Shown: positions 8,635 to 39,655 of the stretch, piece by piece | How positions within the stretch are numbered: position 1 is the first letter of the stretch | Layout of the letters: each line of letters begins with the position of its first letter | NCBI GenBank assembly: GCA_016930535.1 | Contig: JAFGGN010000085.1 | Span: 39,281 to 103,280 of the forward strand | DNA length: 64,000 nt | Reading direction: 5' to 3' | Source: a bacterium | GTDB taxonomy: Bacteria > Zhuqueibacterota > QNDG01 > JAFGCO01 | The notes under the pieces: model-generated | The model's input: only the letters and a program-made list of their open reading frames with translations | What the model was told of the DNA's origin: nothing | Database searches by the model: none | Program-made: the position numbers and the translations under genes

Positions 8635-8668
8635 TGGAGAGCTCCTTTCAAAATCGATATCTCAGCTG

Positions 8669-9514: not shown

Positions 9515-9528
9515 CGTCGATTCTCCTT

Positions 9529-19231: not shown

Positions 19232-20452
19232 TCAGAATTCATACTTCATTTTGACGGAAATATCCATTCCTTCCACATTCAGTTTGATGTTCCCCTGCTC
19301 ACGCGATCCGGCTAGGTATTTCAGATAAAATTCCATCGTCGTCGAATAGGAAAACCGGTATTCCCCGCCGAATCCGCCTCCCAGTACATGGGTTTTGGCC
19401 TGTCCGGCTTCATTTTCACCGTAAAACCGGCCGTCGACGAGTATATGTATCCCTCCGCCGACGATGGCGAAGGCTTTCCAAATGAGGTTCAGATCCAGCT
19501 CGGGCCGGTTGGTATTGTAGGCTTCCTCCTGAAACTGGATCGCCTGCAAATACCGGTTTTTATTTTTCTGTCTGTAGTTCATCAGAAGCCAGACGTATTG
19601 TTCGTCATATCGGTAAAAAAGACCGGTATTCAGAGTCAGCCGTGTCCCGGATTGATACATTTCTTCGCCATCGACGATATCCCGCTGAAAATAGGTGACG
19701 ATACCGTCCAGCATCCATTTCATATCATCCATCAGCCGCACATCCAACCCCATATGCACGCAGAATTCATCACCGGGATCGAACTTTTTATCATAATTGT
19801 GAAGCAGCGTGTCATTGATCAGATAATTATGCAGCGGAACATATTCACCTCTCAAATGATAACTCAGACCACCGCCCAGGACCAGGTTTTCCATCAGCGG
19901 ATACGACAGAAAAGCGCCTGCTTTGGCGAAAAATCCCTGTCCGTATACAGGCATTTGAAACTGAAAAATATTATTGTAAAGATAATTCGATATGATGTTT
20001 TCCATGTAATTCAATTTCGTCTTGCCGACCGGAAGCCCGAGACCGGCGATACACAGCAACCTGCTGTCCCACATCAGCATGTTCCCCTGTACATAAAAAT
20101 CAGACAATCCGCTGAGATTCCATTTTTCCTGTTTTGGGGAGAACACATACTCGGTATGTTCCGGGTTGGTGAACTGCCTGCGATTGATCAGCGCCGTGTA
20201 ATCGGTGCGTCCGAATGAAAACGATGAATAAATATTCAGGGTACTGCTGAGGGGTATGACCATTTCAACCGGAATGGACAGCTGCATCAGCGGATTTGTC
20301 ATCACCCTTTCCTGACGCCACATTTGCAATCCTGCTCCTGATTTGATGTATCCCTGCGGAGATGTCGGCATGATTTCCTGCTGTGCGGATACCGGCAGCC
20401 AGAGTAACGGAATCAGTAAGCATACACACATTAAATGTCTCATTATGATCAT
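19232..20452 (-). CDS. outer-membrane beta-barrel protein, paralog A (partner of giant protein A)
   Basis: It has a signal peptide, and the C-terminus ends ...KMKYEF (aromatic terminal residue). It is clearly homologous to 29462..30577 through shared YGQG, DPGDE, YRQ-KN, DGRFYxENExG and KYLxG blocks. There is a 36-nt gap after giant gene A. Confidence 0.6.
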   Translation of the reverse strand: MIIMRHLMCVCLLIPLLWLPVSAQQEIMPTSPQGYIKSGAGLQMWRQERVMTNPLMQLSIPVEMVIPLSSTLNIYSSFSFGRTDYTALINRRQFTNPEHTEYVFSPKQEKWNLSGLSDFYVQGNMLMWDSRLLCIAGLGLPVGKTKLNYMENIISNYLYNNIFQFQMPVYGQGFFAKAGAFLSYPLMENLVLGGGLSYHLRGEYVPLHNYLINDTLLHNYDKKFDPGDEFCVHMGLDVRLMDDMKWMLDGIVTYFQRDIVDGEEMYQSGTRLTLNTGLFYRYDEQYVWLLMNYRQKNKNRYLQAIQFQEEAYNTNRPELDLNLIWKAFAIVGGGIHILVDGRFYGENEAGQAKTHVLGGGFGGEYRFSYSTTMEFYLKYLAGSREQGNIKLNVEGMDISVKMKYEF

Positions 20453-20488
20453 CCTCAGTTTGATTTGCGCTTCATGAACGGTCCGGGG

Positions 20489-23400
20489 TTATTTGATCAG
20501 CACCATTTTTCGTACAGCAGTTTTGTTCGCAGCCTTCAGCTGATAGACGTACACTCCGGTGGGTAATTTCATCCCCCGGTCATCCGTTGCGTCCCATTCG
20601 ACCGCATGTTTTCCGGCGTGACAGTCCTTTTCAACCATATACCGAACCCGCTGGCCAAGCGCATTATAAATTGAAATCCGGACATCCGATTTTTGGGGAA
20701 GGGTGAAATTGATCGTGGTAACCGGATTGAACGGATTGGGTGAATTGGGCAGCAATGCGAAATCAACGGGTTCCAGAGAAATGCCCTCCCTGTTTTTCTC
20801 CAGAAACTGTGCGGTACCCGCAATCATTTTAAAGGTTCTGCTCATATTGTCCGGATCGGAATTGAATCCATACAACCGGTCTTTCATCAGATCTACGGCC
20901 ACTTCGCTTTCAAAATCGATGAGATAGGCTTTCCAGTTCTCGGGCAGATCGGAAAGATGATTCCAAGTGATCTGATGCCTGGTCTGCGATTCGCCGCAGA
21001 GGACGGACAGTTTCCAAACCTGCCCATCCGTTTCGGTCGGACGAATATCCGCCGCATAGATGTTCGGTTTCTCCTCCCAGTCCGCATGTTCAAAAGTCAA
21101 CGATACGCCGTTCGCAAAGCCGCGCGGCGGCTCGGGTCTGTCATACAGATCAACCTGCATGGACGCGTGTTCGCGGACACCCGCATAATTGTACTTGTCA
21201 CAGCTGTAATCGTCCGATACAGAGATCTGCATGATCCATGACGTTTCTTCCAGATTATCAAGCAATCCCCTCCCGTTTCCGGCCGTTTTACTCAGAGACG
21301 CGTCTTCGGGATGGATGAAGAGATAACCCGGTTCAGGCGATGCATTGAAAAACCAGTAACCTTTCCAGGGCTCGAGATACGGAGTGTCCGGCCGGTAGCC
21401 GTCTTCCCCTTCCCAACCATAGGGCGGCGTGATCTGGGCCGATGAAAGGGAACAGTCCGACCATTTGATGGTGAAATTGTAGGGATTGCCCACCATATTC
21501 CAGCCGGGCTGCAGTTCCTTCTGAAAGCTGGTATCCGTGCTGACCGTATGACCGCCTCTTAAAGAGAACTGACGCTCGATATTGGAAACAAGCCAGTAGG
21601 CTCTCCCGGGAGGCATCGAGAAGGATCCCTTGTACAGATCCGAGAATTCAACATAGATGATGCCTTCGGGATCGTAATTGTACCAGACCTGACTGCGCGC
21701 CGGATCCCACCAGAACAGGCGCCACTGAAACGGATCGTAGTCTTTTATTGAAATCCCCGTGAAAACGGTATCCGCGCCGATATGATCGAGAAAAAACGGA
21801 ACCGAAAACATGGCGGCGAGCTGATACCTGCCCGTACTCATACGCTGGGGCGTGTAAACCAGCTGCGTTTGCATGGATTCAAACCTGATCGGTATCGATT
21901 TCGGTTTGTTGACGGGATCCATGACCGGATATGTAAACATGTGCTGTGTACTTGAAACCACTTCCACATAATACTCGACACCCCGCAAAGTGACCGCTTC
22001 TGACGGAATCACGGCACGGAATGTCTGGTCATTTTCCGGGAAGGCATTCGCGGTTTGATAGGAGATCCGGCCGCTCTGCCTGTAATACAATGTCATGCTT
22101 GAAGCATTGACAGCCACGGGTACGTTCAATGTGAGGGTGATCTGATCGCCCGCGTAAGGCGTGGCCGGCGTGAGTGCAGTCGGCCGTATACCGGCATCGA
22201 TGACCGGATTCATGCTCCAGATCTCTCTGTTGATCGTGGAGAAACGCAGTTCATCCAGATATCCCTGGAAATAACCGGCATATCCGCCGTTTTTACGCTC
22301 AGCCGCACCGAGAAGAAGCGGACGAACCAGGTCTGCAGTTTCAAGATCCGTATTCCATGTCTCCGACCATATTTCAGTGAAATCGACGAACATCCGCCCT
22401 GTTTTCAACTGATGGTCGTAAACAAAGGCGAGATGATGCCAGGCATTATCGTTGACCCTCGGCCCGACACCGTCGATTCCGTTCACAGTCACACGGCCGA
22501 AATTGTTGATGCCCACGATCAGGTCGCCCTGCATCAGGGAATCCTGAAATCCCTTGCCGATAAGGACCTGGGACACGGTGTCGGTCTTGAAATAGCATTC
22601 CAGTGTCAGGCTCTGGGTATGGAAATCGTTCTGCAGCAGCTCGTCGCCGGGAATCTCAACCCTGTCATTGTATCCGTCGAACCGGATGCAGGCATCGAAA
22701 AATCCTTCATCGTTCACGATCCGTGAACCGTTCCATAAGAATCCGTTCAGACGATTCCCTGAATTGTCAAAAATGGTATCCCCGTGCGATTCGTTGAAAT
22801 GATAGAGCATCACCGTGTATCCGTCCGCAGCATATTCGGCTGAACCCGGGCTCAGATAACCGGTTCCGGTCAGCGTGATCGCGGTCTGGGGTGAATTTTT
22901 GGCATTGCTTTGAATCGTGAGCGTTCTTGCATACGACGAAGTGGCCTGAACCGGTTTGAATGTCACGGGAAGAAATACGGATTGAAGCCGGTTCAATGAA
23001 AATGTCTGCATATTTTCAGGAATGCTGAAAATGGTATCCGCGCCGGATATTTCATGAATCGTCAGAGTCTGATCCCCGGGATTCGTGACAATCAGATTCA
23101 TTGTACGGGTAAATCCGAGCTTGACCTGATCGAACGGCAGCTGATACGCGGACAGGATAATCTGAGGAGGTATGACGTTCAGTTCCCAGGCTTTTCTGTC
23201 GATATTCGATATCCTGATCTCATCCATGAACCCGTAAAATACCCGGGACCCGCCGATATCGGAACCGTAGCGTACGGAGCCGCCTGCCAGGCTCAGTATA
23301 TCCCCGATGAAAGATACGCTGTCCTGAACCAGACCGTTTACCATCAGCCTTGCCCAGGATCCGTCAATGGACAGGGATACATGATACCATTGTTCGAGAT

Positions 23401-26400
23401 TGAAATCATCCGATTCGGGGCCGTGGAGCGTGAATCCCTGATTGAGCTGGTTCCATATGCGTGCCACAATTTCACTGTTTTCACCGCTTGTAAAGGCGAT
23501 TTCGAACTGTTTGGTGTTGTCCCCAAGCGCTCTCTGTACGATCAGGGCACCCGTGTTCGGAAGTGCGGACAACCGGAACCAGTTTTCAACCGTGAAATAG
23601 GCGCTCACCTTGCCCTCCAATGCCTCGGAAGGCAGTTCGAAATATCCGCCGTAAAACCGGAGCCCTCCCCCGAAACGGCCGGTATCTGAAATAGCAACCT
23701 GGTCGTGAAGGGTTCCGTGTTTGCCGTTTCCTGAAAAATCGCCTACCGTGACGCCGTCCACTCCGACTGAATCGAGATGAAACAGGGACAGGGTAAACGG
23801 ATCTGTTGGATAAGGTTCCTGCTCGATCGTGGGAATTCCGCTGCCGGACAGATTCACCTTGCGTTCCGGCCAGAAAGGATCGTTTGTGTAAAAAGTCAGT
23901 GCACCCGGATGCGATCCCAGCGTGAGTGCCTTGAATGTGATACGGATACGCCGGCTCTCCTCCTGAAGAAGATAGAACTGCTGTGTATCCGACTGGTAAT
24001 AGGCATCCAGATCAATGGCGATGCTGTCCACAAAAAGCGTATCCATGCCGAGCATGTTGTTCACCGAAAGTTCGAGTGTCCGGCTGGATCCCAGAAATAC
24101 ATCCCCGAAATTCAGCTGGGACGGGGACACGGATATTCTGGCCATATTGACATTGAATTCCCATGTATCGCGTCCCACACCGGATATGCGCACCTCGTCC
24201 ACGTTGCCTGAGAAGGCATTGGCCGAAAGCCAGTCCCCGCCGACAAGCATGGAAAGGGTGTCCAGGATGGTATGGCTCTGGTCGCTTGCCATGGTTCCGC
24301 CGAAGTACCGTGAATCGACGCTGTTGCCGTTGACATAAAGGTAAAGACTGTCCTCACGCTGTACAAGGGCCGTATGATACCACTGATTCAGCTGCACGGC
24401 CCCCAGTGCCGAACTGTTGACCTCGAACAGATCCTGTTCCGTATTGTACATCCTCCCGATAATCCGTCCGCCGTTATCGATGTACATGTCAAATTGATTG
24501 GCGGCCACGTTCCCCCGCCTGATGATCACGCTCTGCGTAATCGGATAGCGGTCGATCCTGAACCAGGTTTCCACGGTGAATCCGCCCCATACCGGACCGA
24601 ACCGGTCCTCCGAACCGGGTTTCACCAAAATCCGGTCCGCCGTATTTTTGAATTTGACGGAAAATCCTTCATCGAATTTCCGTATGGAGGCATCGTAGGT
24701 GGTGCTGCCCTTGAATGCGCCGTCCATTTCCTGACCGGAGCTGTCAGAAGCGACCAGGGGCGTATTGTCATCGAAGTGATACAGCCCCAGGGTAAACGGA
24801 TCCGCCTCATAACGCCCTGCCCGGAAATTGCTGACCGATCTCCCGCGTATGGGCACATTGTATGTGGGAAAAGTCGGATCTGAATTGACAATCACGAGGG
24901 ATTGACCATCTGCATGGTCATTTTCAGTATCAGGATGGTACGTCATCCAGATGATAGTGGATGATTGCGGCATGAGATTGATCGGAAGCGTGACCTCTTC
25001 GTCGATAAATTCGGACGGCGTATACAGATTGGCAATGGTGAGTATCTGGGAACCCCGGTTGTATATGGTCACCGGAACCCGCCTGGTCTGATCCATGAGC
25101 ACATAACCGAACTCGATGGGAGACGGCTGAATGGATATTCGTGCCCGGTTGACGTGAAACTCCCAGGACTGTCTTGCAATGGAAGAAATGTGAATCTCAT
25201 CGATCAGGCCGTTGAACGGTAAATAGCCCGTGGATGTGGCCCCGATGGCCATGGGTTCTGAGGTCTGAGGCCGCAAATCGTTCGACATGGCGGCCTTGGA
25301 GATGGGATCCCCGTTTAAGTAAAGGACCAGACTGTCCATATCCCATGTAAATGCTGCATGGTACCATTGATTCACATTGAAAATGCCGATGGAGCCGGAA
25401 TATATCGTATGCTGATTTCCGCCTGAATCCCAGACGCTGCCCATCAGGCCCTGACCTGTCTGATTGTCGAGTGCGAGTTCGACCTGCCGGGTCTCATTGT
25501 TGCCGCGCCGCATCAGAACGGCATATCCGGATGGGAGTTCCACGATATTGAACCACAATTCGACCGTGAAGGGTGTTTTCTCGAAATTCAGATGGCTGTG
25601 ATACGGAATCTGCAGGTAATCCGATTCCCCGTCGAGCCGGACGGCCTTATTGAAACCGGATTGTGAATTTTCCTGTGTCGGCTCCCCCTGGACAAAGGCA
25701 TCCTTCTCGAGAATCGAGGCGTCCTGAACGGACGATGCGATGGATTCATCATCCAGATGATACAAACCGATGGTGAATTCGTCACGGGTATAGGGACGCG
25801 TGGCCGGCAAAGACGTATTGAGCGTATCCACATAGGCCTGCAGCGTGAGCTCGATTACCGGCTCATCCGGATCATTTGAATAGATGCTTGCCACATCGAT
25901 CTGGGTCGATTTGCCCGCTGTTACAGGCGGAGAGAATGTCACTTCAACCTGCTGCATTTCTCCGGGCGCCACGGTAAACGAAACGTCATCGAAATGAAAC
26001 CAGGAGTTCAGCCACGTGATATTGTCAACCCGAAGCAGCGTGGTTCCCTCATTGATCACGTTCAGAATACGCGGCCGTGACTGGCCGGGAATGACCGGAC
26101 CGAATTGAAGCGGGCTTTCCGGGTAAATGGCGATATCCGGCTGGATAGAACTGCGGAAAAGATACACACCGTCACTGCCGTCGGCCATTGCGACCACACC
26201 GTTGCTGGCGGAAATATCGAGCGCGAGCGCCTCGCCGTTTGTGTTATAATATCCTGTCTCGGGAAACAGCCCGGGTGTTGAAAAATCAAATACACGCAGG
26301 CCCGATTCCGAATCGGTCAGGTAGATGGTTTTCTCGATGATCTGGATATCCGTAATATTTCCACCCGTAGTAACTCGCTGAACGCCGTTCGTCTGAAGGT

Positions 26401-28033: not shown

Positions 28034-28071
28034 GTGTAAGATTCTCCTCTTGATCCGACAGTCGTCATCAT

Positions 28072-29445
28072 TTATCGCTGCGGAGGTCTTGGAGGTTCAG
28101 AAAGCTGAAACGGCAGCACAGGAGCCGGAGAAATACTGGCCTCGACAAAAGGCTCACGGGAATTGTTGCCCGGAAGGATCAGGGCATTATGCTGCAATCC
28201 CATCCACTGCAGCCGGTTGTATGAACTGACGATATCCGGCGGCGGTGAAAACACGAGTCGCGCGCGTCCGCGTGCGGACGTTTCGACGAGATGCCGGACT
28301 TCATACGTCACACGCATCTGATTGTAATTCTGTGTCACTTCCCAAATTTTCGGATTCAGCATATAATCCTGGGCATTGATAAAAGAACCGTCGTATCTCA
28401 GCGCATTGTGAAAATGATTCTGGGCGATCGAGAAATTACCCTGATCGAGCGCATCAAGACCGCGGCAGTAGCTGATAAACGCCAGCATATTTTCCGTGGG
28501 AATTTCGAGCAGCTGATCACGCTGTCTGTCGTTCATAAAAATATCGAAGAAATCCGAAATCCGCATGGCCAGTTCTTTTTCAATTTTAAAAAAGCGGGCC
28601 AGATTGCCGTCGAAATTCATGCTCAGGGCTGTGGCATTCGTTTCAGCGGTAATGATTTCCGAATCCAGCGTCATCTTCAGATCATCCGTAATCAGGTACG
28701 ATCCGTTGATCAGATACCTGGCACCCAGAATACGCGCCACGCGCTGCTGAACACCCGGTTCGCGCATGCTGACCGGATTCAGTCCCAGCTCGGACATCAG
28801 ACGGTTCAGCTTGACACGGTCGATGACCACCAGATTCGGTATAGTGGAAAGGTCCTGGGCGATGATTTCAGCAAGACCTTTCTGCAGGGGATCCCATTCG
28901 ACATTGTCGCTCAGGTTGAGAAAATAGGTCACCACCACGCTGTTTTCCGGAAATTCCTCGAAACGGCGGATATCCTCTTCCTGAATGGCCTTGTTCAGTT
29001 CACGTCCGATTTTCTGCTGCGAGACCCAGTTGAGACGGCCGAACATGAAATAGCGGTAGGGATCGTCATCGGGCAGCACTTTGTAACGCCTGTAAACGGA
29101 CAGGGCCTCGTTTTCCTGATCAAGCGCCTCCCGGGACATCCCGAGAAAAAACAGAGCCTTGCCATGAGCCGGATCCTTTTCCAATACTTTTTCAAATATT
29201 TTGGCCGCGGCCGAGTAGCTCTGCTTGTGCCAGTAGGCCACACCGATTCCTGTCATCGCTTCCTTATCGTAAAGAATGAAGCGCTTCCCGTCACGGATGC
29301 GCGGCCTCAGCATCATCAGATAATTCCGGATGGCCTTGTCATAATCCTTACGATCAAGCTCTTCTTCCGCAGCATGATATTTTGAAGTTGCGCACCCGCT
29401 GAAGAACACAGCGAATATCAAAACTGCAGCAAGTTTCCATTTCAT
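28072..29445 (-). CDS. lipoprotein with N-terminal TPR region, central CsgG/LpoB/FlgO-like alpha/beta domain and Pro-rich C-terminal tail, paralog A
   Basis: The lipobox is FFSGC. It is paralogous to 37015..38442 (KDYDKAIRNYLMML vs NDYERAMQAYIRSL; DGKRFILYDKEAMTGIGVA vs DGKRYIRYQPVAMTRIGIS; LPDDDP vs LPADDP). The central segment VVVTYFLNLSDN...LAEIIAQDLS is weaker than in the paralog. The tail is SEPPRPPQR. Confidence 0.55.
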   Translation of the reverse strand: MKWKLAAVLIFAVFFSGCATSKYHAAEEELDRKDYDKAIRNYLMMLRPRIRDGKRFILYDKEAMTGIGVAYWHKQSYSAAAKIFEKVLEKDPAHGKALFFLGMSREALDQENEALSVYRRYKVLPDDDPYRYFMFGRLNWVSQQKIGRELNKAIQEEDIRRFEEFPENSVVVTYFLNLSDNVEWDPLQKGLAEIIAQDLSTIPNLVVIDRVKLNRLMSELGLNPVSMREPGVQQRVARILGARYLINGSYLITDDLKMTLDSEIITAETNATALSMNFDGNLARFFKIEKELAMRISDFFDIFMNDRQRDQLLEIPTENMLAFISYCRGLDALDQGNFSIAQNHFHNALRYDGSFINAQDYMLNPKIWEVTQNYNQMRVTYEVRHLVETSARGRARLVFSPPPDIVSSYNRLQWMGLQHNALILPGNNSREPFVEASISPAPVLPFQLSEPPRPPQR

Positions 29446-29461
29446 GAAACAACCCCAATGG

Positions 29462-30577
29462 TTATATGGTGATCTTCAGACTTGCGAGAATATCGAACCC
29501 GCTGATATCGATATCCACGACCGATTCGATGGTACCGGTCAGATACTTGAGCTGAATCCGGGAAAGCACCGTCGGGGACAATTTGTGCTGAATTCCCAGG
29601 CCCGCACCATATACGGACGCTTTGCCGAATCCGTCTTCGTTTTCGCTGTAAAAACGGCCGTCCCATAAGAGTGACAATCCGCCTTCCGGCCATTGCGTGA
29701 ATTCCCAGAGTCCGTCCGTTTCGATCTGATCCCCGATGGTCTTTTTGGATATTTTTTCCGAATCGTCCTGGGCATTTCCAGGCAGATACAGATCGTTTTT
29801 CCCTCTCTGCCTGTACCGCAATGAGGCGTACAGAAAACCGGGATTCAATCGATACGCCAGTGTGGATGATATCAGGATCTTGTCGCCGGCCTCGAGCATT
29901 TTTTCATCATTATACAGATCTTCGGTATACATGGTGTACACGAGATCCAGGCTCCATTTTCCCTTATCCTGAACGGGCATGCTCACACCGCCGACAATGT
30001 TGATTTCATCTCCGGGATCATATTCCGAATCCAGTCCGGACCATAACGAATAGGGCTGCTTCAGTATATAATTGGCTCCCAGTCCGAGCACGGTGCCTCC
30101 CTGCATCGGGAATGTCATGCCGGCGCCGACTTTGGCCGACAATCCCTGACCGTAATTGGGAAGCCGGAAACGCAGAATATTTTCACTCAGCTGCCTCGTG
30201 ATCATATATTCCGCGGCCGTCAGTTCCGTTTTTCCGGTGGGAGCGCCCACACCCATATTGATCATCCAGCGTTCATCGGCCGAGACATACGTCACACGCA
30301 GCCAGGTGTCCGAAAGACCGCTGACACTGCTGTCGCCCCAGGAAGCCGTGGCCGGTGTATTGGTCGCTGTCAGAAACCAGTTTGCATTGACAGGATAGAA
30401 GCAGAGCAAGGGAGCGGCTGTCTGGTTCAGGGACGTATCCTGGTCCTCGGCTGTCCATTGCTGGTAGGATACACCGAGATTGACATATCCGCTGCCCTTG
30501 GAGGGCTGCATGTATTCCTGAGCGAAAGCAGAGCCCGCAACCGTGGAAAGCACGATATAAAGAATCCATTTTTTCAT
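29462..30577 (-). CDS. outer-membrane beta-barrel protein, paralog B (partner of giant protein B)
   Basis: The signal peptide is MKKWILYIVLSTVAGSAFAQE. It is homologous to 19232..20452 (NYGQG, DPGDE, YRQRGKN, DGRFYSENEDG, KYLTG). There is a 26-nt gap after giant gene B and a 16-nt gap before lipoprotein A. Confidence 0.6.
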   Translation of the reverse strand: MKKWILYIVLSTVAGSAFAQEYMQPSKGSGYVNLGVSYQQWTAEDQDTSLNQTAAPLLCFYPVNANWFLTATNTPATASWGDSSVSGLSDTWLRVTYVSADERWMINMGVGAPTGKTELTAAEYMITRQLSENILRFRLPNYGQGLSAKVGAGMTFPMQGGTVLGLGANYILKQPYSLWSGLDSEYDPGDEINIVGGVSMPVQDKGKWSLDLVYTMYTEDLYNDEKMLEAGDKILISSTLAYRLNPGFLYASLRYRQRGKNDLYLPGNAQDDSEKISKKTIGDQIETDGLWEFTQWPEGGLSLLWDGRFYSENEDGFGKASVYGAGLGIQHKLSPTVLSRIQLKYLTGTIESVVDIDISGFDILASLKITI

Positions 30578-30603
30578 ATTTTATCCTTCTTCCTGAATCC
30601 GGA

Positions 30604-33600
30604 TTATCTGACGAGCATCATTTTTCGTATGGCCACCCTGCCCGGGAACTCGAGTTTGTAAAAATAAATACCGGAAGACAGGGCCGTCCCGCGGTTCGAG
30701 AGGCCGGACCATCTGATTTCATACTCACCGGACTGCTGTTCCTGATTGATCAGGACGTTCACGCATTCACCCCGCATATTGTACACGCTCAGCTTGACAT
30801 GACCCGTACGGGGCAGCGAGTATTTAATCATTGTTACCGGATTGAATGGATTCGGATAATTCTGATACAGATGGAATTCGCGTGGTGCAACCGCATTCTC
30901 CAGCTGCTTCTGAACGAATTCCGGCGGACCGGCAATGCATTTCAGGAAACGGACATTGGGAACCTCATCCGGGGTTACCATGGCATAATCGTCCATGTCC
31001 GTGACATCGAGGGCAATGCCTTCCCGTTCGTCGACCAGCATGATCTTCCAGGATTCAGGCAGCGTCTGAACCATCTGCCAGGTCAGTTTGATCAGCTTCT
31101 TATTCAGAGAAGATTCCACGGCGATATCCCAGACAAAGCCCTCTTCCTGCGGCGAGCGGATGTCCGCCGCGTAGGTCCCGGGATGTCCGGCCCAGTCTGA
31201 ATGATCGAAGAACACGGAAATATACTCACCGATGGGCGGCGGCTCGACACGGTCCCTCAGATCCCATTCGGCTCTTGCATCCTGCCGTACACCGATATAA
31301 TTGTCGAGATCCTCCGCCGATTCGGCCCGTGCAGACAATTTCCATATCCAGTCGGATTCTGCCAGCGATTCCAGCACGCCTCCGCGTGTGGCCGCACCTT
31401 TTGCGAGCGCTGCGGATTCACGCGGCGGGACAATCAAATCGTTATAGGTTCTCCCGGCATTGTATATCCAGTAGCCGCCCCACGGATCGAGCGTGGGCCA
31501 GTCAAGCCGGTATCCCATGCCGTTATAGTAGTACAGCGTTTCCAATGAATCTGAAGTCAGGGCGCAGTCGTTCCAGTGCACCGTGAACGGGAAAGGCGAA
31601 CCGATCATGCTCCACTGCGGCCTGAGTGAAAAGCGGTAGGGACCGTTTGTGGAAACCGAAGCGCCTGCATTCACGTCCCACAGTTTCCGTGCCGCCGAAA
31701 TGACCCAGAATGCGCGTCCCTGATCGAATGCAAACACGAGGCTGTCCGCATAGGACAGGCTGTCGTCCATTTCCCAGTATGACGTATCCTTCCAGGTCAG
31801 GCAGCGCCATTCATAGGGATCCCAGACATTGTTGAATTCATCCAGCAGCACGGTTCCCGCATTGGCATCGTCCAGATCGGCCGGAACCGAAACCATGACA
31901 TACTTCTTTTTCAGGAACATGGCCGAGGTATCCGCAGTCAGTGAATTGAAACGCACACGCGCGGCCATCGGCCGGTTGATCGGATCGTACAGGGGATGCG
32001 TCGATGTGCGGCCGGATGTGACCATTTCCACATAAAATTCGAGACCCCGTTCCGTCATCTGGTCTGCGGGAACGATCGCCTGATACAGGGTCGGAACAAG
32101 CTGATCAGGCGTCGCTGTTAGTGTCTGATATCCTCTCTGTCCCCCCTGCCTGTAATGGAGATACACTTCTTTATCCGTCGTTGTGACTGGAACCGTGATC
32201 TGAACCGCCTGCTGCACGCCCTTCTGCGGCACGGTTGTATAGGATGCGGAAATACCGGTTCCCTTGAAGATCAGGTCCCAGGGCTGACGGGCGATGCTTG
32301 AAATTCTGATTTCATCCATGGTCCCGTCAAAAAAACCGGTGAGCTGGCCTGTTGCGGTTTCACGGGCCGCAAATACAAGCCTTCCCGGAGAGACGATGTC
32401 CGTATCCCCCGCATGCCACAAGCCCTGCAGTTCCACATTGCCGTCCAGATACAGGGTGGCCTGCTGGACCGTTCCGTCATACACGAATGCCGCGTGATGC
32501 CATACCCCGTCCGCCACGCAGGTGTTCCCCTTGCCGAATCCGTGCAGGGTCAGGAGCCCGTCCGTATCGATGATCAGGCCGTAATTGCTGCGGTTTTCCG
32601 AGCCGGATATATGGGGATCCTTGTGGAACAGCACCTGGTTGAGCGTGTCGGTTTTAAAGAAGCATTCGACCGTGAAACTTTCGGTGGACAAATCGAACTG
32701 AAGACCCGCATCATCCGCCACCCACATGTACTCGTCCACGCCGTTGAAGGACAAACCGCCGGAGAAATAAGCGGGATTTACGCGCGATCCCGTGCCGGCC
32801 ATGGTCCCGTTATGATTTCCGGTCGCATCCGCGACACTCAATCCGGTTTCATCGCAATGCCAGAGCGCCACCGTATACTGATCGAGCCCGTAGGGCACTT
32901 TGGGCCGGTAATCGATTCCCACGGCCAGTATCGGAACGCTGAGCATCGGCGTGTCCGGATCGTTGCTGAAAATCCTCAATGTATCCGTCACGGTTCTGAT
33001 TGTGTCCGGAACGAACTGGACGAACAGGTTGGTCGTTTCTCCTGCGGTCAGCGTGATTTTTGCCGGTGCCATCAGGAAAACGGACTGATTCGTGCGGATC
33101 GTATCGATCACGAGAGGAACGCCGCCTATATTCGACACTTCGATAATGCGGTTCGCGGAACTGCCGACCATGACGGTACCGAATTCGAGACGCTGTGCGG
33201 CCGTATAAATATTGGGAATGCCGACATTGAACTCCTCGGGCTGACGGTCGATATTCGAAAAACGGATTTCATCCAGATACCCGTTGAACCCGTGACCGGT
33301 ACCGTAATCACCGCCCAGAGCCAGATCCGCAACCGAACTGCGCAGCGTTCCGTTAAAAGCAACGGAATCCACGGCCACGCCGTTGACGTACAGCCTGAAT
33401 TTGTTCAGATCCCATGTGAGTGCCATCTGATACCAGGAATCGATGTTCATTTCAGTATCCGGAGGTCCGTACAATGTGTAGATCTGCCCGCCCGAACTGT
33501 ACAGGCGGATCACGAGGCCCTTGCCCGCGGTCAGCGTATCGCCGTACATGACTTCGTACTGCAGACTGGTGCCGCTGCCGCGCCGGAATAATGTGTAGAA

Positions 33601-36600
33601 ATTTTTGCCGGAGGGTTTGGCAGAAAGGCTGAACCAGGTTTCGAGGCTGAACGGAGACGATGCATAATTGAAAACCGGATTGTACGGAACCCGTACCCAG
33701 CCGGAACTGCCGAGAAACCTGAGCGATGACAATCCGAACTTTTTATAAATGTCGGACCAGGACAGGCCGCCGCCTTCAAAATATCCGACAAGGCCTTTGC
33801 CCGAAGCGTCGGGTATCGAATCCATTTCCACGGTTCCGTCCAGATGCCAGAGACCGGATGTATATGTGTCCGTCACGTAGGCGCCCAGATTGATGGTCTC
33901 GAATCCGTTCCCCGAAAGCGGCACGCGGATCAGGGACTGAAACTGATCCTGTGAACGGATAAACAGCGTATCCGTGTATGCCTGGGCATTCGTGGGCCTG
34001 AATCCGACCCAGATCAGTCGCTGGCCGGAGGAATTGATGCTGAATTCGGGTTCCGACACGGTGAAATGCGGATTCTTCGTGTACAGGCTGTCCACATAAA
34101 GGACGCCCGATCCCACATTGCGCACATACATATAGATATACTTTGAACGGTTGACATAGACATTGCCGAATGCGAGGGACCCGTAAGGTACCTGGATGCG
34201 TCCCGTATTGATGTTGAATTCCCACGGCTGACGCGCGATGCCCGAAAGCCGCATTTCGTCGAGTGTTCCGTGAAACGGCTTTGTCAGACCCGGATCGTTC
34301 CCAACCGTCGCTGTCAGCAGGCCAGTGGGCTCCGGCACGTCCGTCTCTTTCTCATCCGCCAAAAAGCCGTTCAGATAGAGCTTCAGATCCTCACCGTACG
34401 TCAGCGCACCGTGGTACCATTGCCCCGTTGTCAACGGGAATTCGGCATCCGACAGCAGGGTGTCGATCGTGACCGCATTTTCGGAGGACAGGCCCATCAG
34501 CCGGTTGTTACGCACGCTGAGCTCGAACACGATCCTGTCTCCTTCAGACAGCCGGAACAGCACGCCGGTGCCTTCCGGAATCTGATCGAGTTTGAACCAG
34601 GTCTCGATACTGAATCCGGGCCACTCTTCCACAGGCAGAAGATCCATGTTGTTCAGCTGCACGTTCACGATATCGTTTTCATTGAATACCAGTCCCTGCC
34701 CGAACCGTCCCATGCCTGTTCCTGAAACAGCCGCTCCGGTGACGGTGCCGTCCATATAACCATACAGGGATTCATCGGGAAGCGTTTCACCTTCGAGGGC
34801 ATTCATATGATACAGCATGAATGTGTAGTAATCAGGCTGGTATGCCGCCACATCGATGGTGTTCACACCCGTGCCGATCACTTTCAGCAGATGCGGACTG
34901 TTCGTCGCATCCGAATAGAATCTCAGTGTGTCCCTCACGGTTCCGGTTGTGGACGGTGCAAAACGAACCTCCATCCAATCCTCGCCCGGACTGATCCACC
35001 TCGGCAGGTTCGCTCCGTAGAACCGTCCCGATGTGGAGGTGGATTCGTTGACATAAACCGATGCAGTGCCCGCATTTACCACGCGTACCCACAGGGATCT
35101 CGACTGCCCGAGCACGACACTGCCGAAATGGACAGAATCCGCATCAATCACCAGCTGGCCCGTAAAATCACCGGAGAAATAATAAACGCCCCCGATGCCG
35201 TCGGCCAGTGCCAGGGTGTCCCCCATCACCTTGATGCCGTAACTCGACCCCGCCGTATGATAGTAACCGACTTCAGAGAATTCCTCCTCGTTGGATGTAT
35301 CGATCAGGCGCATGGTCCCCTGTCCGTCCGCAACAACGGCCACATTGTCATGAAAACTGACGTCATAGGCATACCCATCCGTATTGTACTGTCCTGCCGG
35401 AACGATATTTTCCAGATTTGAGACATTCAATCCGACCAGGCCATTCGGTCCGTCCGCCAGATAGATCCTCTCCGATCCCTCGCCCTGCAGTCCCACGGCC
35501 ATGGTATGACTGCTGCTCTTGTAGGATCCGACAATGGTCTGTGTCGGAATATTCACGACTTTCACGCCATTGGTATCGGCCGATACGTAGAGCCGGTTCG
35601 AACGGGCATCGGCTTCCACACCCACGGCCCGTATGCCGGTGACACCTTCGAGCATGCCCTGATTCAGGGGTTCGAAGGGATTGGTCACATCGATTTTTCG
35701 TACACCGGCGGTTCCCTCTGCCGCATAGGCATAGTCCCCGGCGACCGTGACATCCAAAAATTCACTTGCAGTTTGAAAATGCGTGATATAGGCCGGCTGC
35801 AGAGGATTGCTGACATTATAGAAAAGCAGGCCTCCTGGACCGTCCGCGATGATCAGCACGCTGCCGGCAAGGGCAAGCCCCTGGGCATTCTCCGTGTCCC
35901 AATGGGACCGGAGCGTCACCTGACTATCGTGCAGCTGCGAATTGTCCAGAATCCAGACACCGCTCTGTCCTCCTGCCACATACGTCGTATTGGCGGTCAG
36001 GACCAGGTCCATGGCACTCCCGCCGGTCATAATCTGCTCGTTCTCCTGCGGAGGAGCCACGGCCACGTCGATTTCCCTCAGTCCGTCGTTTCCGTCCGCC
36101 AGATAGGCATAGTCCGGTCCCAGGTAGACGGCGAGCGCTTCTCCGCCTGTATTGAGGGACGTGGCCTGATTCATCGTGGTCAGATCGATGACGCGAAGGC
36201 CGTAACCTTCATCGGATACGTAGGCTTTCTCGGCTCCGACATCCACAGCAATATCGCTCAGCAACGCATTGTCGCCGGCTTCCCACTGATCCGCAATCGC
36301 CATGTTCGACGGATTGGTCACATTGACGGCAAGAACACCGTGTGTTCTGTCCGCGACAAAAGCCTGCGTTCCCCGTACGGACACGCCAAAGGCCTTGTCA
36401 GGGGTTTTGACCGTATCCAGTCTGACAGGAGCCGCCGGATTGGTGATGTTCACGGAAACCAGACCGACTGCATCCACGGCCAGATAAGCTGTATTTCCGC
36501 TGACATAAACATCCTGGACCGGCGACGTGAACTGAAGGACGGCGACCTGGTCAAAATCGGATGTCCGGATCACGGAGAATCCCCAGCTGCCGTTGGCCAC

Positions 36601-36981
36601 GTAGATATAACCGTCCTGATAGGCCAGCCTGCGGACATCTCCGCCCGATGCCCATGTGCCTGCGAGCGTCGGATTGGTGATCAAGCTTCTGTCCAGCACA
36701 TAAACACCGGAATTCTGAACAGCTACGTAAACCTTGAATGACTGATAATAAATATCCTGGATCAGACCCGGAAACGTATACCTGGCGAAACGGTTGTCAT
36801 AATTTTCCGCATCCAGAATATCCAGATAGCTTCCGTTTCCCATGTGAAGCGCGTCGGCCGTGGTGAATATGGCCCGGCAGGGTCCGCTGGCCCAACGCGC
36901 CTGAAGCGACAGATTGTCGCTGTGCTGTGCAGAAACAGCGACGGTCACGGTCATCCATACGGTAAGAATAAGCCTTTTCAT
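30604..36981 (-). CDS. giant secreted protein B (2125 aa): LVIVD-repeat beta-propeller, about 3 choice-of-anchor-D/LamG modules, C-terminal T9SS sorting domain; paralog of giant A
   Basis: It has a signal peptide. LVIVD repeats include YAYLADGNDGLREIDV, LIIADGPGGLLFYNVSNPLQP and YAYAAEGTAGVRKIDVTNPFEP. A choice-of-anchor-D-like segment is VHFGSVVLGQSRSLWVRVVNAGTASV. LamG modules include YTFMLYHMN...WYHGALTY...LYLNG and YTVALWHCDETG...WHHAAFVYDG. The C-terminus QNYPNPFNPVTMIKYSLP...GIYFYKL is a T9SS sorting domain. The N-terminal 100 aa and the C-terminal 500 aa align with giant A. Confidence 0.8.
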   Translation of the reverse strand: MKRLILTVWMTVTVAVSAQHSDNLSLQARWASGPCRAIFTTADALHMGNGSYLDILDAENYDNRFARYTFPGLIQDIYYQSFKVYVAVQNSGVYVLDRSLITNPTLAGTWASGGDVRRLAYQDGYIYVANGSWGFSVIRTSDFDQVAVLQFTSPVQDVYVSGNTAYLAVDAVGLVSVNITNPAAPVRLDTVKTPDKAFGVSVRGTQAFVADRTHGVLAVNVTNPSNMAIADQWEAGDNALLSDIAVDVGAEKAYVSDEGYGLRVIDLTTMNQATSLNTGGEALAVYLGPDYAYLADGNDGLREIDVAVAPPQENEQIMTGGSAMDLVLTANTTYVAGGQSGVWILDNSQLHDSQVTLRSHWDTENAQGLALAGSVLIIADGPGGLLFYNVSNPLQPAYITHFQTASEFLDVTVAGDYAYAAEGTAGVRKIDVTNPFEPLNQGMLEGVTGIRAVGVEADARSNRLYVSADTNGVKVVNIPTQTIVGSYKSSSHTMAVGLQGEGSERIYLADGPNGLVGLNVSNLENIVPAGQYNTDGYAYDVSFHDNVAVVADGQGTMRLIDTSNEEEFSEVGYYHTAGSSYGIKVMGDTLALADGIGGVYYFSGDFTGQLVIDADSVHFGSVVLGQSRSLWVRVVNAGTASVYVNESTSTSGRFYGANLPRWISPGEDWMEVRFAPSTTGTVRDTLRFYSDATNSPHLLKVIGTGVNTIDVAAYQPDYYTFMLYHMNALEGETLPDESLYGYMDGTVTGAAVSGTGMGRFGQGLVFNENDIVNVQLNNMDLLPVEEWPGFSIETWFKLDQIPEGTGVLFRLSEGDRIVFELSVRNNRLMGLSSENAVTIDTLLSDAEFPLTTGQWYHGALTYGEDLKLYLNGFLADEKETDVPEPTGLLTATVGNDPGLTKPFHGTLDEMRLSGIARQPWEFNINTGRIQVPYGSLAFGNVYVNRSKYIYMYVRNVGSGVLYVDSLYTKNPHFTVSEPEFSINSSGQRLIWVGFRPTNAQAYTDTLFIRSQDQFQSLIRVPLSGNGFETINLGAYVTDTYTSGLWHLDGTVEMDSIPDASGKGLVGYFEGGGLSWSDIYKKFGLSSLRFLGSSGWVRVPYNPVFNYASSPFSLETWFSLSAKPSGKNFYTLFRRGSGTSLQYEVMYGDTLTAGKGLVIRLYSSGGQIYTLYGPPDTEMNIDSWYQMALTWDLNKFRLYVNGVAVDSVAFNGTLRSSVADLALGGDYGTGHGFNGYLDEIRFSNIDRQPEEFNVGIPNIYTAAQRLEFGTVMVGSSANRIIEVSNIGGVPLVIDTIRTNQSVFLMAPAKITLTAGETTNLFVQFVPDTIRTVTDTLRIFSNDPDTPMLSVPILAVGIDYRPKVPYGLDQYTVALWHCDETGLSVADATGNHNGTMAGTGSRVNPAYFSGGLSFNGVDEYMWVADDAGLQFDLSTESFTVECFFKTDTLNQVLFHKDPHISGSENRSNYGLIIDTDGLLTLHGFGKGNTCVADGVWHHAAFVYDGTVQQATLYLDGNVELQGLWHAGDTDIVSPGRLVFAARETATGQLTGFFDGTMDEIRISSIARQPWDLIFKGTGISASYTTVPQKGVQQAVQITVPVTTTDKEVYLHYRQGGQRGYQTLTATPDQLVPTLYQAIVPADQMTERGLEFYVEMVTSGRTSTHPLYDPINRPMAARVRFNSLTADTSAMFLKKKYVMVSVPADLDDANAGTVLLDEFNNVWDPYEWRCLTWKDTSYWEMDDSLSYADSLVFAFDQGRAFWVISAARKLWDVNAGASVSTNGPYRFSLRPQWSMIGSPFPFTVHWNDCALTSDSLETLYYYNGMGYRLDWPTLDPWGGYWIYNAGRTYNDLIVPPRESAALAKGAATRGGVLESLAESDWIWKLSARAESAEDLDNYIGVRQDARAEWDLRDRVEPPPIGEYISVFFDHSDWAGHPGTYAADIRSPQEEGFVWDIAVESSLNKKLIKLTWQMVQTLPESWKIMLVDEREGIALDVTDMDDYAMVTPDEVPNVRFLKCIAGPPEFVQKQLENAVAPREFHLYQNYPNPFNPVTMIKYSLPRTGHVKLSVYNMRGECVNVLINQEQQSGEYEIRWSGLSNRGTALSSGIYFYKLEFPGRVAIRKMMLVR

Positions 36982-37014
36982 AGAATGCTCCCTCGAGGAT
37001 TGATCTTTGATTCA

Positions 37015-38442
37015 TTATGGACGATGCGGCGGTGGCGGCGGATCCGGTAAATACCAGGGATCCAGCGGATACGGCGCCGGCGGATCCGGAGGATCCGGCA
37101 GACCATCCGGTAACAAATCGGTAAAGTCATCAAAATCGATACCTTCAAACGGATCTCTTGAATCGCTGCCAGGTATGAAACCCGCATCCAGATACCAGCC
37201 CATTTGCTGCAGCCGGTCTATGGACTGGGCACTGGCCAGGGCATCATAATCGGATTCCGCACCGAAACCGCCCGATTTATATCTCAGCCGTTTCGCCATG
37301 GTTTTACACAACAGGGCGAGATCCGGCGTTTGAACGGCAAGAAAGATATCCGTCGCTGCAAGTATCTGTTCCGCCATGGCGAACGCCGGGTCCTCTTCAA
37401 GCGCTTTGGCCAGATAGAGCTGTGCGGTCTCGTACTGCCCCAGGTCGAGCGCGTGCAGTGCATAGGCGTAATTGAAAAAAGCCCGGACACTGCGTGTGGC
37501 AGGCTCTCTCAAACGGGTTCTCTGCAAATCGGTCAGCCGAATGCCGAGATCCTTCAATAAATTGACCACCATTTTTTTCTCCAGCAGCACAATATCGCTC
37601 AACTGGCCCTGGACATCGGATTCCCTGACACCGCGAATGCCTGAAAACAGGATGGTTCTCTGGTGAAAATTGAGCTGACCGCTTCCGGCCAGCCGCATGT
37701 CCCCCTGCAGCACGGATCCCGCTCCCATCATTCTCTGAATTTTTTCGACATTTTCAATCTGACTGGATTCATTGCTTTGCCAGCCCATATATTTCTGGAG
37801 CTGCATCAGTTTATCCCTGGGAATTACCTGAAATCCACCCATCCGGTCCAGATCGCTGATAATCAGGCTTGCAACGCCTTTTGCGATGATGGTTCCTCTC
37901 AGATCGGATCCTCCGTATCTGAAATCGAGCACGACAATGCGGTCCAGCGGATATTCGGATGCAGGTCCGGGCCCCTTGGCCGCCAGCAGACGTGCCTCCT
38001 TGGAATACATCTGCTCCCGTACCGCATACAGTCTGCCTTTCATGGCATCACGGGACGGATCATCGGCCGGAAGACGGTCATAACCGGCATAGATCTGCTG
38101 GGCTTTTTTGAGGTCTCCCTTTTTTTCATAGCACACACCGAGAAAAAAATGAGCGGGGCCATAGTCGGGTGTTTTCCTGAGAATAAAATTGAACACCTTG
38201 ATGGCACCATCGACCATGTTCAGCTGCATCGCAGAAATGCCGATACGCGTCATAGCGACCGGCTGATACCGGATATACCGTTTTCCGTCCGCGGTCTGTA
38301 CCTGCAGAGACCGGATATAGGCCTGCATGGCTCTTTCGTAATCATTCTGGGCAAAAAAGGCATCACCGTTCTGCGTGGACATACTCGTGCATCCGAGCAT
38401 GAAGGCAAACAGGCCTATTCCTGCCCATCGCCACTTTGTCAT
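37015..38442 (-). CDS. lipoprotein with N-terminal TPR region, central CsgG/LpoB/FlgO-like domain and Pro-rich C-terminal tail, paralog B
   Basis: The lipobox is FMLGC. The central domain matches the AVLxF...ERxxL pattern of the CsgG/LpoB/FlgO lipoprotein fold (IVVLDFRYGGSDLRGTIIAKGVASLIISDLDRMGGFQVIPRDKLMQLQ). The C-terminal tail is DPPDPPAPYPLDPWYLPDPPPPPHRP. There is a 33-nt gap before giant gene B. Confidence 0.6.
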   Translation of the reverse strand: MTKWRWAGIGLFAFMLGCTSMSTQNGDAFFAQNDYERAMQAYIRSLQVQTADGKRYIRYQPVAMTRIGISAMQLNMVDGAIKVFNFILRKTPDYGPAHFFLGVCYEKKGDLKKAQQIYAGYDRLPADDPSRDAMKGRLYAVREQMYSKEARLLAAKGPGPASEYPLDRIVVLDFRYGGSDLRGTIIAKGVASLIISDLDRMGGFQVIPRDKLMQLQKYMGWQSNESSQIENVEKIQRMMGAGSVLQGDMRLAGSGQLNFHQRTILFSGIRGVRESDVQGQLSDIVLLEKKMVVNLLKDLGIRLTDLQRTRLREPATRSVRAFFNYAYALHALDLGQYETAQLYLAKALEEDPAFAMAEQILAATDIFLAVQTPDLALLCKTMAKRLRYKSGGFGAESDYDALASAQSIDRLQQMGWYLDAGFIPGSDSRDPFEGIDFDDFTDLLPDGLPDPPDPPAPYPLDPWYLPDPPPPPHRP

Positions 38443-38576
38443 AGACCCTCCTTAGCTCCAATGACTCCCCCCAAGGCGTAGGTGAAGATCATGGGTTATT
38501 AAGGGGAAGTAAATTTGAAGGTTACTTTGTCATTTATATAAACCTGCTTGTTCGGTATTCCTGAAAACCGGATATC

Positions 38577-39272
38577 TCATTGTTCTTTTTTCATCCTGAC
38601 CAGCCGGGCGATGGCTTGTTTCGCCTGCTCGAACTCAGGTTCGATTTCCAGCGCTTTTTTGTATTCTGCGTATGCGCCGTTGATATCGTTCTGATCCTCC
38701 AGGACGAGCCCCCTGGAAAAGCTCATAACGGCATTTATTTCCAGGGTCCCGGACCGTTCCAGCTGTCCGGCTTCTTCCTTCGTTAAAATCAGTGAAAGGT
38801 CGTTCACAATCTTACCGCTCAGTTTTTTTATCAGGGACAGTATGTCCCTGGTTTTTCCGGTGACTTCGGCGGCTTTCAGATTCTTGCCGGTTTCAACCTC
38901 GACTATTCTGAGATCGATTCGTATTTTATTATCGGAAACCACCATAAAACTGCCAAACACGAGATGCCCGGCACCGCTCATTCTGCCTACCTGCATGGCG
39001 CCGTCTCCGGACGTCATTCCGGACTGCTGCAGTTTCAATTCATCCAGCAGTTCTTTCAGACGTCTTCTTTCCACCATATGCACGGACTGAATCCGGGACA
39101 ATTCGGTGATCATCATCTCGGCCAGCCCCTGGGAAAGCGGGGCATATTTCTCGGCCTGCAGAAAAGTGCGGTTCTCAAAATCAAGAACGGCCAGTGTCAT
39201 CGGACCGGCCGTGGCATTTAAACCGCCAATCAGAACCGATGCACAGAGAATGGACCGGATCAAACGTCGCAT
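38577..39272 (-). CDS. secreted CsgG/LpoB/FlgO-like domain protein with C-terminal TPR pair
   Basis: The ORF track gives 38577..39302. The start was moved to MRRLIRSILCASVLIGG (signal peptide). The core LAVLDFENRTFLQAEKYAPLSQGLAEMMITELSRIQSVHMVERRRLKELLDELKLQQ is a strong match to the AVLPFxN...ERRxLxxL signature. The C-terminus NGAYAEYKKALEIEPEFEQAKQAIARL is a TPR. Confidence 0.6.
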   Translation of the reverse strand: MRRLIRSILCASVLIGGLNATAGPMTLAVLDFENRTFLQAEKYAPLSQGLAEMMITELSRIQSVHMVERRRLKELLDELKLQQSGMTSGDGAMQVGRMSGAGHLVFGSFMVVSDNKIRIDLRIVEVETGKNLKAAEVTGKTRDILSLIKKLSGKIVNDLSLILTKEEAGQLERSGTLEINAVMSFSRGLVLEDQNDINGAYAEYKKALEIEPEFEQAKQAIARLVRMKKEQ

Positions 39273-39540
39273 CAGCACACCTTCAACAGGTTTCAAAGCC
39301 ATGTATCCATTTAGCTTAGATTAATATACAATAATAAAAATTCATCTCATTGTCAAGATATAATTTTGTTCATTATTTTTTTTAACGTGCAACTACCATG
39401 CCCGAATATTTGTTACAAAAAAGAAATATTTTAATTGATTGTTATTTATAGGTTTGATTTTTATGAGTTTTAACCGGTCGCCTGCATTGCACCGTGGCCA
39501 TGGAGGAATTCAATACAGCCATGTGTCCGGATTCGAAAGC

Positions 39541-39556: not shown

Positions 39557-39655
39557 TAACCCGTTTTACGAAAAACACATTGATAATAACGGGAGATTAT
39601 AGTATTTTAATCATATATGAGGGACAGGACCAAGGACGATCTGGGAAATATTCAC

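Follow-up and report, generated by a model that had tools for sequence, protein, structure and literature searches.

A tandemly duplicated gene cassette that joins type IX secretion cargo to an outer-membrane barrel and a lipoprotein in uncultured bacteria

How are particular giant secreted proteins matched to particular partners in the outer membrane? The question is raised by a 64-kb stretch of DNA from an uncultured member of the Zhuqueibacterota (contig JAFGGN010000085.1; hereafter the window), in which seven minus-strand open reading frames (ORFs) at positions 19232-39302 encode, in the order of transcription, a small protein with tetratricopeptide repeats (TPRs), here called small, and then two sets of three: lipoB, giantB and ompB, followed by lipoA, giantA and ompA. 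Each set comprises a TPR lipoprotein, a giant type IX secretion system (T9SS) cargo protein and an outer-membrane beta-barrel. A first-pass annotation had proposed that these genes form a cargo-specific, tandem module of three genes, matching no T9SS accessory set so far described. The proposal stands: the module is syntenic in many genomes, its families are without models, and no description of the cassette was found in the searchable literature. That the three genes work together is strongly supported by comparison of loci, and is far more secure than any mechanism by which they may do so.

Gene order, conservation and duplication

The ORF listing reproduces exactly the seven minus-strand genes and the 16-134 nt spacing first reported for them: the gaps along the direction of transcription are 134, 33, 26, 16, 38 and 36 nt. 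None of these gaps contains a terminator-like hairpin of the coding strand (the listed sites are all intragenic); the promoter and terminator scans gave background level and are uninformative. Pfam and NCBIfam scans of the seven proteins agree with the domain calls made earlier. The features are as follows (CTD, C-terminal sorting domain; HMM, hidden Markov model; Ig, immunoglobulin).

38577..39302, minus strand: small, periplasmic TolB-N/CsgG-like and TPR protein, 241 aa (Pfam, BLASTP)
37015..38442, minus strand: lipoB, TPR/TolB-N-like outer-membrane lipoprotein B, 475 aa (TPR matches, lipobox, paralogy to lipoA)
30604..36981, minus strand: giantB, T9SS cargo B, 2125 aa (signal peptide, LVIVD, alternating Ig-like (ASH/choice-of-anchor D) and LamG domains, pre-CTD module, CTD)
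30853..32238, minus strand: pre-CTD module of giantB, residues ~1582-2043 (module HMM, E=1.8e-163)
30607..30858, minus strand: type-A-like CTD of giantB, residues 2042-2125 (TIGR04183, PF18962)
29462..30577, minus strand: ompB, outer-membrane beta-barrel B, 371 aa, unannotated family, locus tag JW948_13410
28072..29445, minus strand: lipoA, TPR/TolB-N-like outer-membrane lipoprotein A, 457 aa
20489..28033, minus strand: giantA, T9SS cargo A, 2514 aa, architecture as giantB with four LamG copies
20738..22168, minus strand: pre-CTD module of giantA, residues ~1956-2432 (module HMM, E=3e-159)
20492..20740, minus strand: type-A-like CTD of giantA, residues 2432-2514 (TIGR04183, PF18962)
19232..20452, minus strand: ompA, outer-membrane beta-barrel A, 406 aa (ompB paralog; barrel-family HMM, E=4e-104)

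Both giants and both barrels carry signal peptides, and both TPR proteins of the triplets carry lipoboxes (LGC and SGC). Member by member, the two triplets are related as had been proposed from their translations: BLASTP aligns lipoA with lipoB at 27% identity over 475 columns (E=1e-43), ompA with ompB at 29% identity (E=5e-55), and giantA with giantB at 31% identity over 1575 columns (E=0) and at 26% over 1734 columns (E=1e-121). Judged by these alignments, the paralogy of the two triplets is well beyond chance.

Twenty loci were obtained from homologue look-ups and a scan of one genome per GTDB species, and were annotated by BLAST; 19 further metagenome loci came from a scan seeded with a barrel subfamily that is 21-25% identical to ompB. 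Annotation of all loci with local HMMs gave 46 distinct barrels, for 42 of which the upstream DNA extends to 600 nt or more. In 34 of these 42 the barrel gene directly follows a T9SS cargo gene that encodes both the pre-CTD module and the CTD; in six it directly follows the lipoprotein gene. The full order – small, lipoprotein, giant, barrel, lipoprotein, giant, barrel – recurs in L001/L004, L002, L006 and L009, and the double cassette is present in part in L005, L007, L008 and L010; the double-cassette proteins of other loci are 35-70% identical to those of the window. A single set, in the order (lipoprotein), giant, barrel, small, is found in KSB1, in Zhuqueibacterota and in two other metagenome-assembled genomes (MAGs). 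Among distant loci, one encodes a CsgG-like protein, a 2034-aa protein, a 1088-aa FG-GAP/ASPIC T9SS protein and a barrel (L024), two have a lipoprotein gene followed by a barrel gene (L022 and L023), and one encodes two TPR/CsgG-like proteins, a barrel and a secreted repeat protein (L026). Linkage of cargo and barrel extends to the metagenome loci of the divergent subfamily (L021-L046). The lipoprotein gene often lies 3′ of the barrel gene instead (for example in L029, L030 and L033-L037).

Because the same linkage is seen across distant subfamilies, it belongs to the barrel family as a whole and not to this genome alone. Synteny excludes chance adjacency of the three genes. Two outcomes had been named beforehand as damaging to the module, namely that its proteins belong to known unrelated families and that synteny is lacking; we find the opposite on both counts, with no known family and tight synteny with T9SS cargo.

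The age of the duplication can be read from trees. Neighbour-joining trees of the barrels and of the lipoproteins each split into a first-position and a second-position clade, with orthologues of several genomes in each, and single-cassette lineages lie outside both; ompA falls in the second-position clade together with orthologues from other genomes. The tree of the cargo module largely agrees, its second-position copies not forming one clade. Paralogs within the window are 27-35% identical, as against ~35-70% for positional orthologues. Since the trees split by position, and orthologues are closer to one another than paralogs are, it is most likely that a block duplication of the triplet preceded the divergence of these genomes and that both copies were kept.

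Barrel and cargo also appear to have diverged together. Pairwise distances between barrels correlate with those between cargo modules (r=0.956 over 27 pairs, a value that 0 of 2000 Mantel permutations reach), although shared phylogeny inflates and partly explains this mirror-tree correlation. Cognate pairing of barrel and cargo is still supported, because paralogous sets within genomes also follow the correlation.

The cargo module, the barrel and the lipoproteins

According to Pfam and NCBIfam both giants contain LVIVD, three to four Laminin_G_3 and ASH/choice-of-anchor-D Ig domains, and both end in a T9SS type A sorting domain. TIGR04183 scores 36.0 bits in giantA and 35.4 bits in giantB (cutoff 23), in each case at the extreme C-terminus, and PF18962 scores 29.2 and 28.3 (cutoff 27). 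The type-B model CHU_C stays under its cutoff of 27 in both giants (25.5 in giantA), and no type-B model is among their NCBIfam matches at E<=0.01.

The first-pass annotation had characterized the cargo as giant LamG/LVIVD proteins. This is true of the window; elsewhere, however, complete barrel-linked cargo proteins range from ~930 to ~3,280 aa and include FG-GAP/ASPIC architectures, and the constant part is a module of ~460 aa that had been missed. When the giants were tiled against all loci, their N-terminal 1,500-1,900 residues proved common only to the window's clade, and the last 450-480 residues before the CTD common to essentially all barrel-linked cargo. In every linked cargo jackhmmer places the module immediately before the CTD (E 1e-107 to 1e-243), and it is also present in opposite-strand cargo genes beside barrels in L020, L045 and L046. 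It is absent from CTD proteins that are not linked to a barrel: those of L022 (861 aa), L023 (630 aa), L035 (341 aa) and L019, and the one encoded at 42237-45242 of the window. For the module there is neither a Pfam family nor a sequence relative in the PDB. Its distribution among these sequences marks it as the family signature of barrel-linked cargo.

An alignment of 35 linked with 14 unlinked CTDs yielded no distinguishing motif, and a special CTD subclass for linked cargo was thus rejected. The unlinked protein of the window (42237-45242, plus strand) is a third T9SS cargo, of 1001 aa, with InlB B-repeat/Flg_new_2, Big_9 and cadherin-like domains and a type-A CTD; it has neither the pre-CTD module nor an adjacent barrel, and was used as an internal negative control. 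The presence of this third CTD protein suggests that a T9SS is in use in the organism. In L030 (1142-9884) two module-bearing cargo genes (1314 and 1373 aa) stand in tandem, followed by one barrel and a lipoprotein, an arrangement from which it appears that one barrel may serve more than one cargo.

Neither ompA nor ompB has a Pfam or NCBIfam match at E<=0.01. A profile search of 1.84 billion cluster representatives (50% identity clusters) returned 1,331 barrel relatives at E<=1e-3, of which 396 remain at E<=1e-30; a word-indexed homologue search returned 32 only. In two scans of homologues, which share both window barrels and cover 58 members in total (thresholds E<=1-10), the recurrent generic matches were OMP_b-brl (7 per scan) and Phenol_MetA_deg (3 and 2). 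Membership of the barrel in a known family was rejected: Pfam and NCBIfam gave sporadic generic matches and one sub-threshold PorP match across the window barrels and the 58 homologues. A profile search of PDB sequences with the barrel gave nothing meaningful (OprC, E=0.73).

A structure of ompB predicted on 26 homologues is a beta-barrel (pLDDT 82, the predicted local distance difference test score), in whose DSSP string 16 transmembrane strands can be counted. Between strands 5 and 6 the model has a long loop with a helix (residues ~109-145), which is folded inward and holds the most conserved motifs of the barrel, GxGxPTGKT and FRLPxYGQG. Foldseek returns FadL among the top matches, all TM-scores being 0.5 or below.

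Proteins of the PorP/SprF family have a DPQFSQY-type motif conserved at the mature N-terminus. The mature N-termini of the cassette barrels are QEYMQPSKGSGYVNLG (ompB) and QQEIMPTSPQGYIKSG (ompA); the motif is absent from both, which confirms the initial observation. One of the 58 homologues (P0151) matches TIGR03519 at E=5e-5, scoring 22.9 bits where the cutoff is 90.55, with residues 87-255 aligned to profile positions 97-247, and one member of the barrel alignment A4 matches PF11751 at E=1e-3. We rejected PorP/SprF membership of ompA and ompB: the curated HMM cutoffs are missed, the N-terminal motif is absent and the paired cargo is type A, not type B. The earlier statement that the barrels are unlike PorP/SprF is accordingly upheld by the cutoffs and the motif, but should be qualified by the weak sub-threshold match of the single homologue, which allows a very remote kinship.

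Both lipoproteins have TPRs and a weak CsgG match in Pfam (17.7 in lipoA, cutoff 20.8); in lipoB, which has the lipobox MLGC, TPR families are matched with E down to 7.6e-12. The lipobox cysteine is invariant in 33 lipoprotein homologues. In an AlphaFold2 model of lipoA, TPR helices lie on both sides of a compact alpha/beta domain (169-299), and this predicted domain superposes on the N-terminal domain of TolB. Going by the model, the lipoprotein consists of two TPR regions, the first of them N-terminal, with a TolB-N-like domain between them, and is not a CsgG channel. The PorE model (NF052230) aligns with lipoB at 17.4 bits against a cutoff of 600 (E=1e-3; residues 10-136 on profile positions 8-133), and does so in the N-terminal TPR only; lipoB lacks both a propeller and an OmpA_C domain.

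The small protein has a C-terminal TPR and matches CsgG (PF03783) at 2.4e-14 (53.6 against the cutoff of 20.8). Because this match covers profile positions 8-97 of 210 only, the CsgG label denotes a TolB-N/LpoB-type periplasmic fold and not the CsgG channel. A CsgG channel was rejected for the lipoproteins as well as for small, given the partial profile match and the lack of transmembrane hairpins, and no curli genes are present in the window or the inspected loci. BLASTP aligns small to lipoA 183-359 (E=2e-20) and to lipoB 186-362 (E=1e-15), and translation probably starts at M11. In other loci its homologues carry ordinary signal peptides and lack a lipobox. The gene, which encodes a soluble paralog of the lipoprotein core, is present once per locus; it heads the double cassette in L001, L002, L006, L008 and L009, and comes after the barrel gene in single cassettes.

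Two further observations concern these proteins. The C-terminal ~60 codons of lipoA and lipoB encode disordered, proline-rich tails (...LSEPPRPPQR and ...PDPPPPPHRP; pLDDT <50), of which the terminal prolines P451, P452 and P454 are nearly invariant in the 33 homologues; a short linear motif conserved for a partner could lie in this tail. In the single cassette of KSB1 (L003, 12326-14101) the small CsgG-like gene is followed by a gene for a 591-aa CsgG/LpoB/FlgT_C protein, and this in turn by the gene for a TonB-dependent receptor together with DUF4876 and DUF6850 genes.

A possible anchoring or shuttle complex and its rivals

Gene content, paralogy, conserved synteny, co-divergence, a cargo-specific module and the fold classes of the proteins are what any account of the cassette has to accommodate. 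From them we infer physical interactions among the products, the direction in which they act and the dependence of the cassette on a T9SS. On balance, and by analogy, we lean towards a cargo-specific anchoring or shuttle complex, parallel to the set of PorE, PorP and type-B cargo and built from other families.

In such a complex the giant would be taken across the inner membrane by Sec and, by means of its CTD, across the outer membrane through the T9SS translocon. The pre-CTD module would then dock on the cognate barrel, a private receptor, shuttle or anchor that would retain the giant at the cell surface or hand it over. The lipoprotein would use its TPR and TolB-N-like domains to bind the barrel on the periplasmic side and so stabilise or assemble the complex, and the soluble small paralog may cap or regulate the contact between lipoprotein and barrel. 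The two triplets would derive from an old block duplication and have since diverged into two cognate sets.

A bolder form of this proposal, offered tentatively since we would not quite bet on it, is that the cassette represents a new class of T9SS cargo targeting that is independent of both PorV and PorP/SprF. A 16-strand barrel and a TolB-N/TPR lipoprotein would anchor or hand over cargo via a docking domain of ~460 aa, and members of the Fibrobacteres–Chlorobi–Bacteroidetes (FCB) group outside Bacteroidota would in this way keep giant adhesins without anionic lipopolysaccharide (A-LPS).

Several points weigh against the anchoring or shuttle complex, the share of phylogeny in the distance correlation being one. 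No T9SS core gene was seen in the 64-kb window. Type-A CTD cargo of Bacteroidota is handled by PorV and linked to A-LPS (PMC12618676); given this route, type-A cargo needs no private barrel in Bacteroidota. Linked and unlinked CTDs are alike, so that specificity must sit outside the CTD, which is an assumption. At two of the distant loci (L022 and L023) module-bearing cargo is absent within 10 kb of the lipoprotein–barrel pair. Finally, the carriers are all uncultured (MAGs unclassified beyond ‘bacterium’, KSB1, Zhuqueibacterota and relatives, all of the FCB group) and the evidence is that of comparative genomics.

It could be argued that barrel and TolB-N/TPR lipoprotein constitute an export conduit of their own, through which the cargo, in whole or in part, or a polymer bound to it passes instead of the cargo only docking there. 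The conduit might resemble two-partner secretion, or else PelBC, in which a ring of lipoproteins lies beneath a 16-strand barrel and TPRs are present; PelC presumably shares the TolB-N/LpoB-type fold. We think this unlikely: the cargo ends in a genuine T9SS sorting domain that clears the curated cutoff, the barrel lacks a POTRA domain and a TPR, genes for glycosyltransferases or polysaccharide synthases are missing beside the cassette in the window and the inspected loci, and Foldseek, with its uniformly low TM-scores (<=0.5), does not single out PelB.

The cassette might instead be a nutrient-capture unit, SusC/D- or chitoporin-like, with the giant (lectin-like LamG domains and propellers) binding a polymer and the barrel acting as a substrate-specific porin. 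An inward loop of the L3 type, together with the porin matches of the barrel, fits such a role. Yet within the cargo, conservation and co-divergence with the barrel are seen in the pre-CTD module, and the putative binding domains differ completely between lineages; moreover, a periplasmic TPR/TolB-N lipoprotein with a soluble paralog has no obvious role beside a porin, and no inner-membrane transporter or catabolic genes are conserved beside the cassette. Nutrient capture is thus as improbable, in our estimation, as a conduit. Most doubtful of all is that the barrels are very divergent PorP/SprF shuttles and the cassette an ordinary PorP/PorE-type set missed by the models: the weak matches of P0151 and the A4 member, the presence among the top Foldseek matches of FadL (whose family includes PorP and PorV), a similar size, the same genetic logic and the weakly PorE-like N-terminal TPRs of the lipoprotein all speak for it, and are to be set against missed cutoffs, an absent motif and type-A cargo.

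The surroundings of the cassette were also surveyed. Divergent from its head is a gene for a GWxTD-domain protein (39617-40915, plus strand; PF20094, E=7e-20); L001 and L002 have the same neighbour, and the gene may, on this recurrence, be part of the conserved locus. Downstream of ompA, at a distance of 192 nt and on the same strand, lies a gene for an S46 dipeptidyl peptidase (16967-19039, minus strand; E=5e-190). Farther away, genes for an extracytoplasmic function (ECF) sigma factor and then HEAT-repeat, unknown and DUF4097 ‘toastrack’ proteins (7801-10915, minus strand), with a second DUF4097 gene at 14907-15830 (minus strand), look like an envelope-stress-type operon unrelated to the cassette. 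G+C content is 0.50-0.555 over 20000-38000 of the window, against 0.43-0.48 in the flank at 8-20 kb, and is again ~0.53 at 56-64 kb; the higher value of the cassette may stem from the giants' amino-acid composition and not from a foreign origin. In L026 (266-9968) the lipoprotein–lipoprotein–barrel genes lie directly downstream, and on the same strand, of genes for FHA-domain proteins, a PP2C phosphatase and a Ser/Thr kinase with PEGA, a gene order that hints at phosphorylation-based regulation in this lineage. A barrel homologue and a T9SS CTD protein are also encoded on a 3.2-kb contig binned as ‘Thermoplasmatota archaeon’ (L019, JAFGPP010000016.1), almost certainly a mis-binned bacterial contig.

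Sorting routes and comparison with known systems

In the current view T9SS cargo is sorted by two routes: type-A signals lead to PorV and A-LPS, and type-B signals to a cognate PorP/SprF, often with PorE-like lipoproteins (PMC12618676; PMC9143113). The cassette suggests a third arrangement, assembled from unrelated parts, paired with type-A-like signals and spread widely among uncultured FCB phyla. T9SS accessories in the form of cargo-specific barrels and partner TPR lipoproteins are already known; what is new, being undescribed in the literature that could be searched, are the protein families, the fact that they pair with type-A-like signals, and a pre-CTD module dedicated to this cargo. 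Three families that have no Pfam or NCBIfam model – the barrel, the TPR/TolB-N lipoprotein and the ~460-aa module – are directly curatable. The module offers a sequence signature by which to predict which T9SS proteins stay cell-bound, and two diverged cognate sets within one putative operon would amount to a natural specificity-swap experiment.

Several known systems share individual components with the cassette. The lipoproteins recall the N-terminal domain of TolB, the TPR of CpoB (YbgF), LpoB and the CsgG core, but no Tol-Pal or curli genes are near the cassette; they differ from TolB in having no propeller and from CsgG in having no transmembrane hairpins, only profile positions 8-97 of 210 being matched. 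In the PelBC exopolysaccharide exporter (PDB 9h80; PMC12141448) the TPR is fused to the barrel, whereas in the cassette it is fused to the lipoprotein; there are no Pel-type synthesis genes near the cassette, the partner is a T9SS protein instead of a polysaccharide, the sequences are 10% identical and PelB is not favoured by Foldseek. Assignment to the PelB-type secretin barrels (PF24604) was rejected in the absence of an HMM match, a fused TPR and neighbouring pel-type genes. With the PorV shuttle the cassette has in common an outer-membrane barrel that would handle T9SS cargo with type-A sorting domains.

The PorE–PorP–type-B and SprB–SprF sets provide the fullest comparison. PorE (a TPR lipoprotein), PorP (a barrel) and the type-B cargo PG1035 form a complex (PMC9143113), and SprF binds the C-terminal 368 aa of SprB (PMC9143113; PMC12618676); porP-like genes adjoin their cargo genes, and often porE-like genes too (PMC9143113). 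The analogy with sprB–sprF drawn in the first-pass annotation holds at the level of this three-part gene logic: in both cases a secreted surface protein is accompanied by a private barrel encoded next to it and by a TPR outer-membrane lipoprotein, and in both several paralogous sets per genome are possible. The parts themselves are different. PorP/SprF is a 14-strand barrel of the FadL family (PMC9143113), whereas the cassette barrel lies outside the PorP/SprF models, lacks the N-terminal motif and is modelled with ~16 strands; PorE is composed of TPR, beta-propeller, CRD and OmpA_C, whereas the cassette lipoprotein is predicted to consist of TPR, TolB-N-like domain and TPR; and the CTD of the cassette cargo is type-A-like, not type B. 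A 2025 study framed T9SS C-termini as combining two signals, one for secretion and one for targeting (PMC12618676). Barrel binding is attributed to a long stretch at the C-terminal end of the cargo (368 aa in SprB), and here too the cassette offers a counterpart of its own: its likely recognition element is a separate module of ~460 aa that belongs to no known family.

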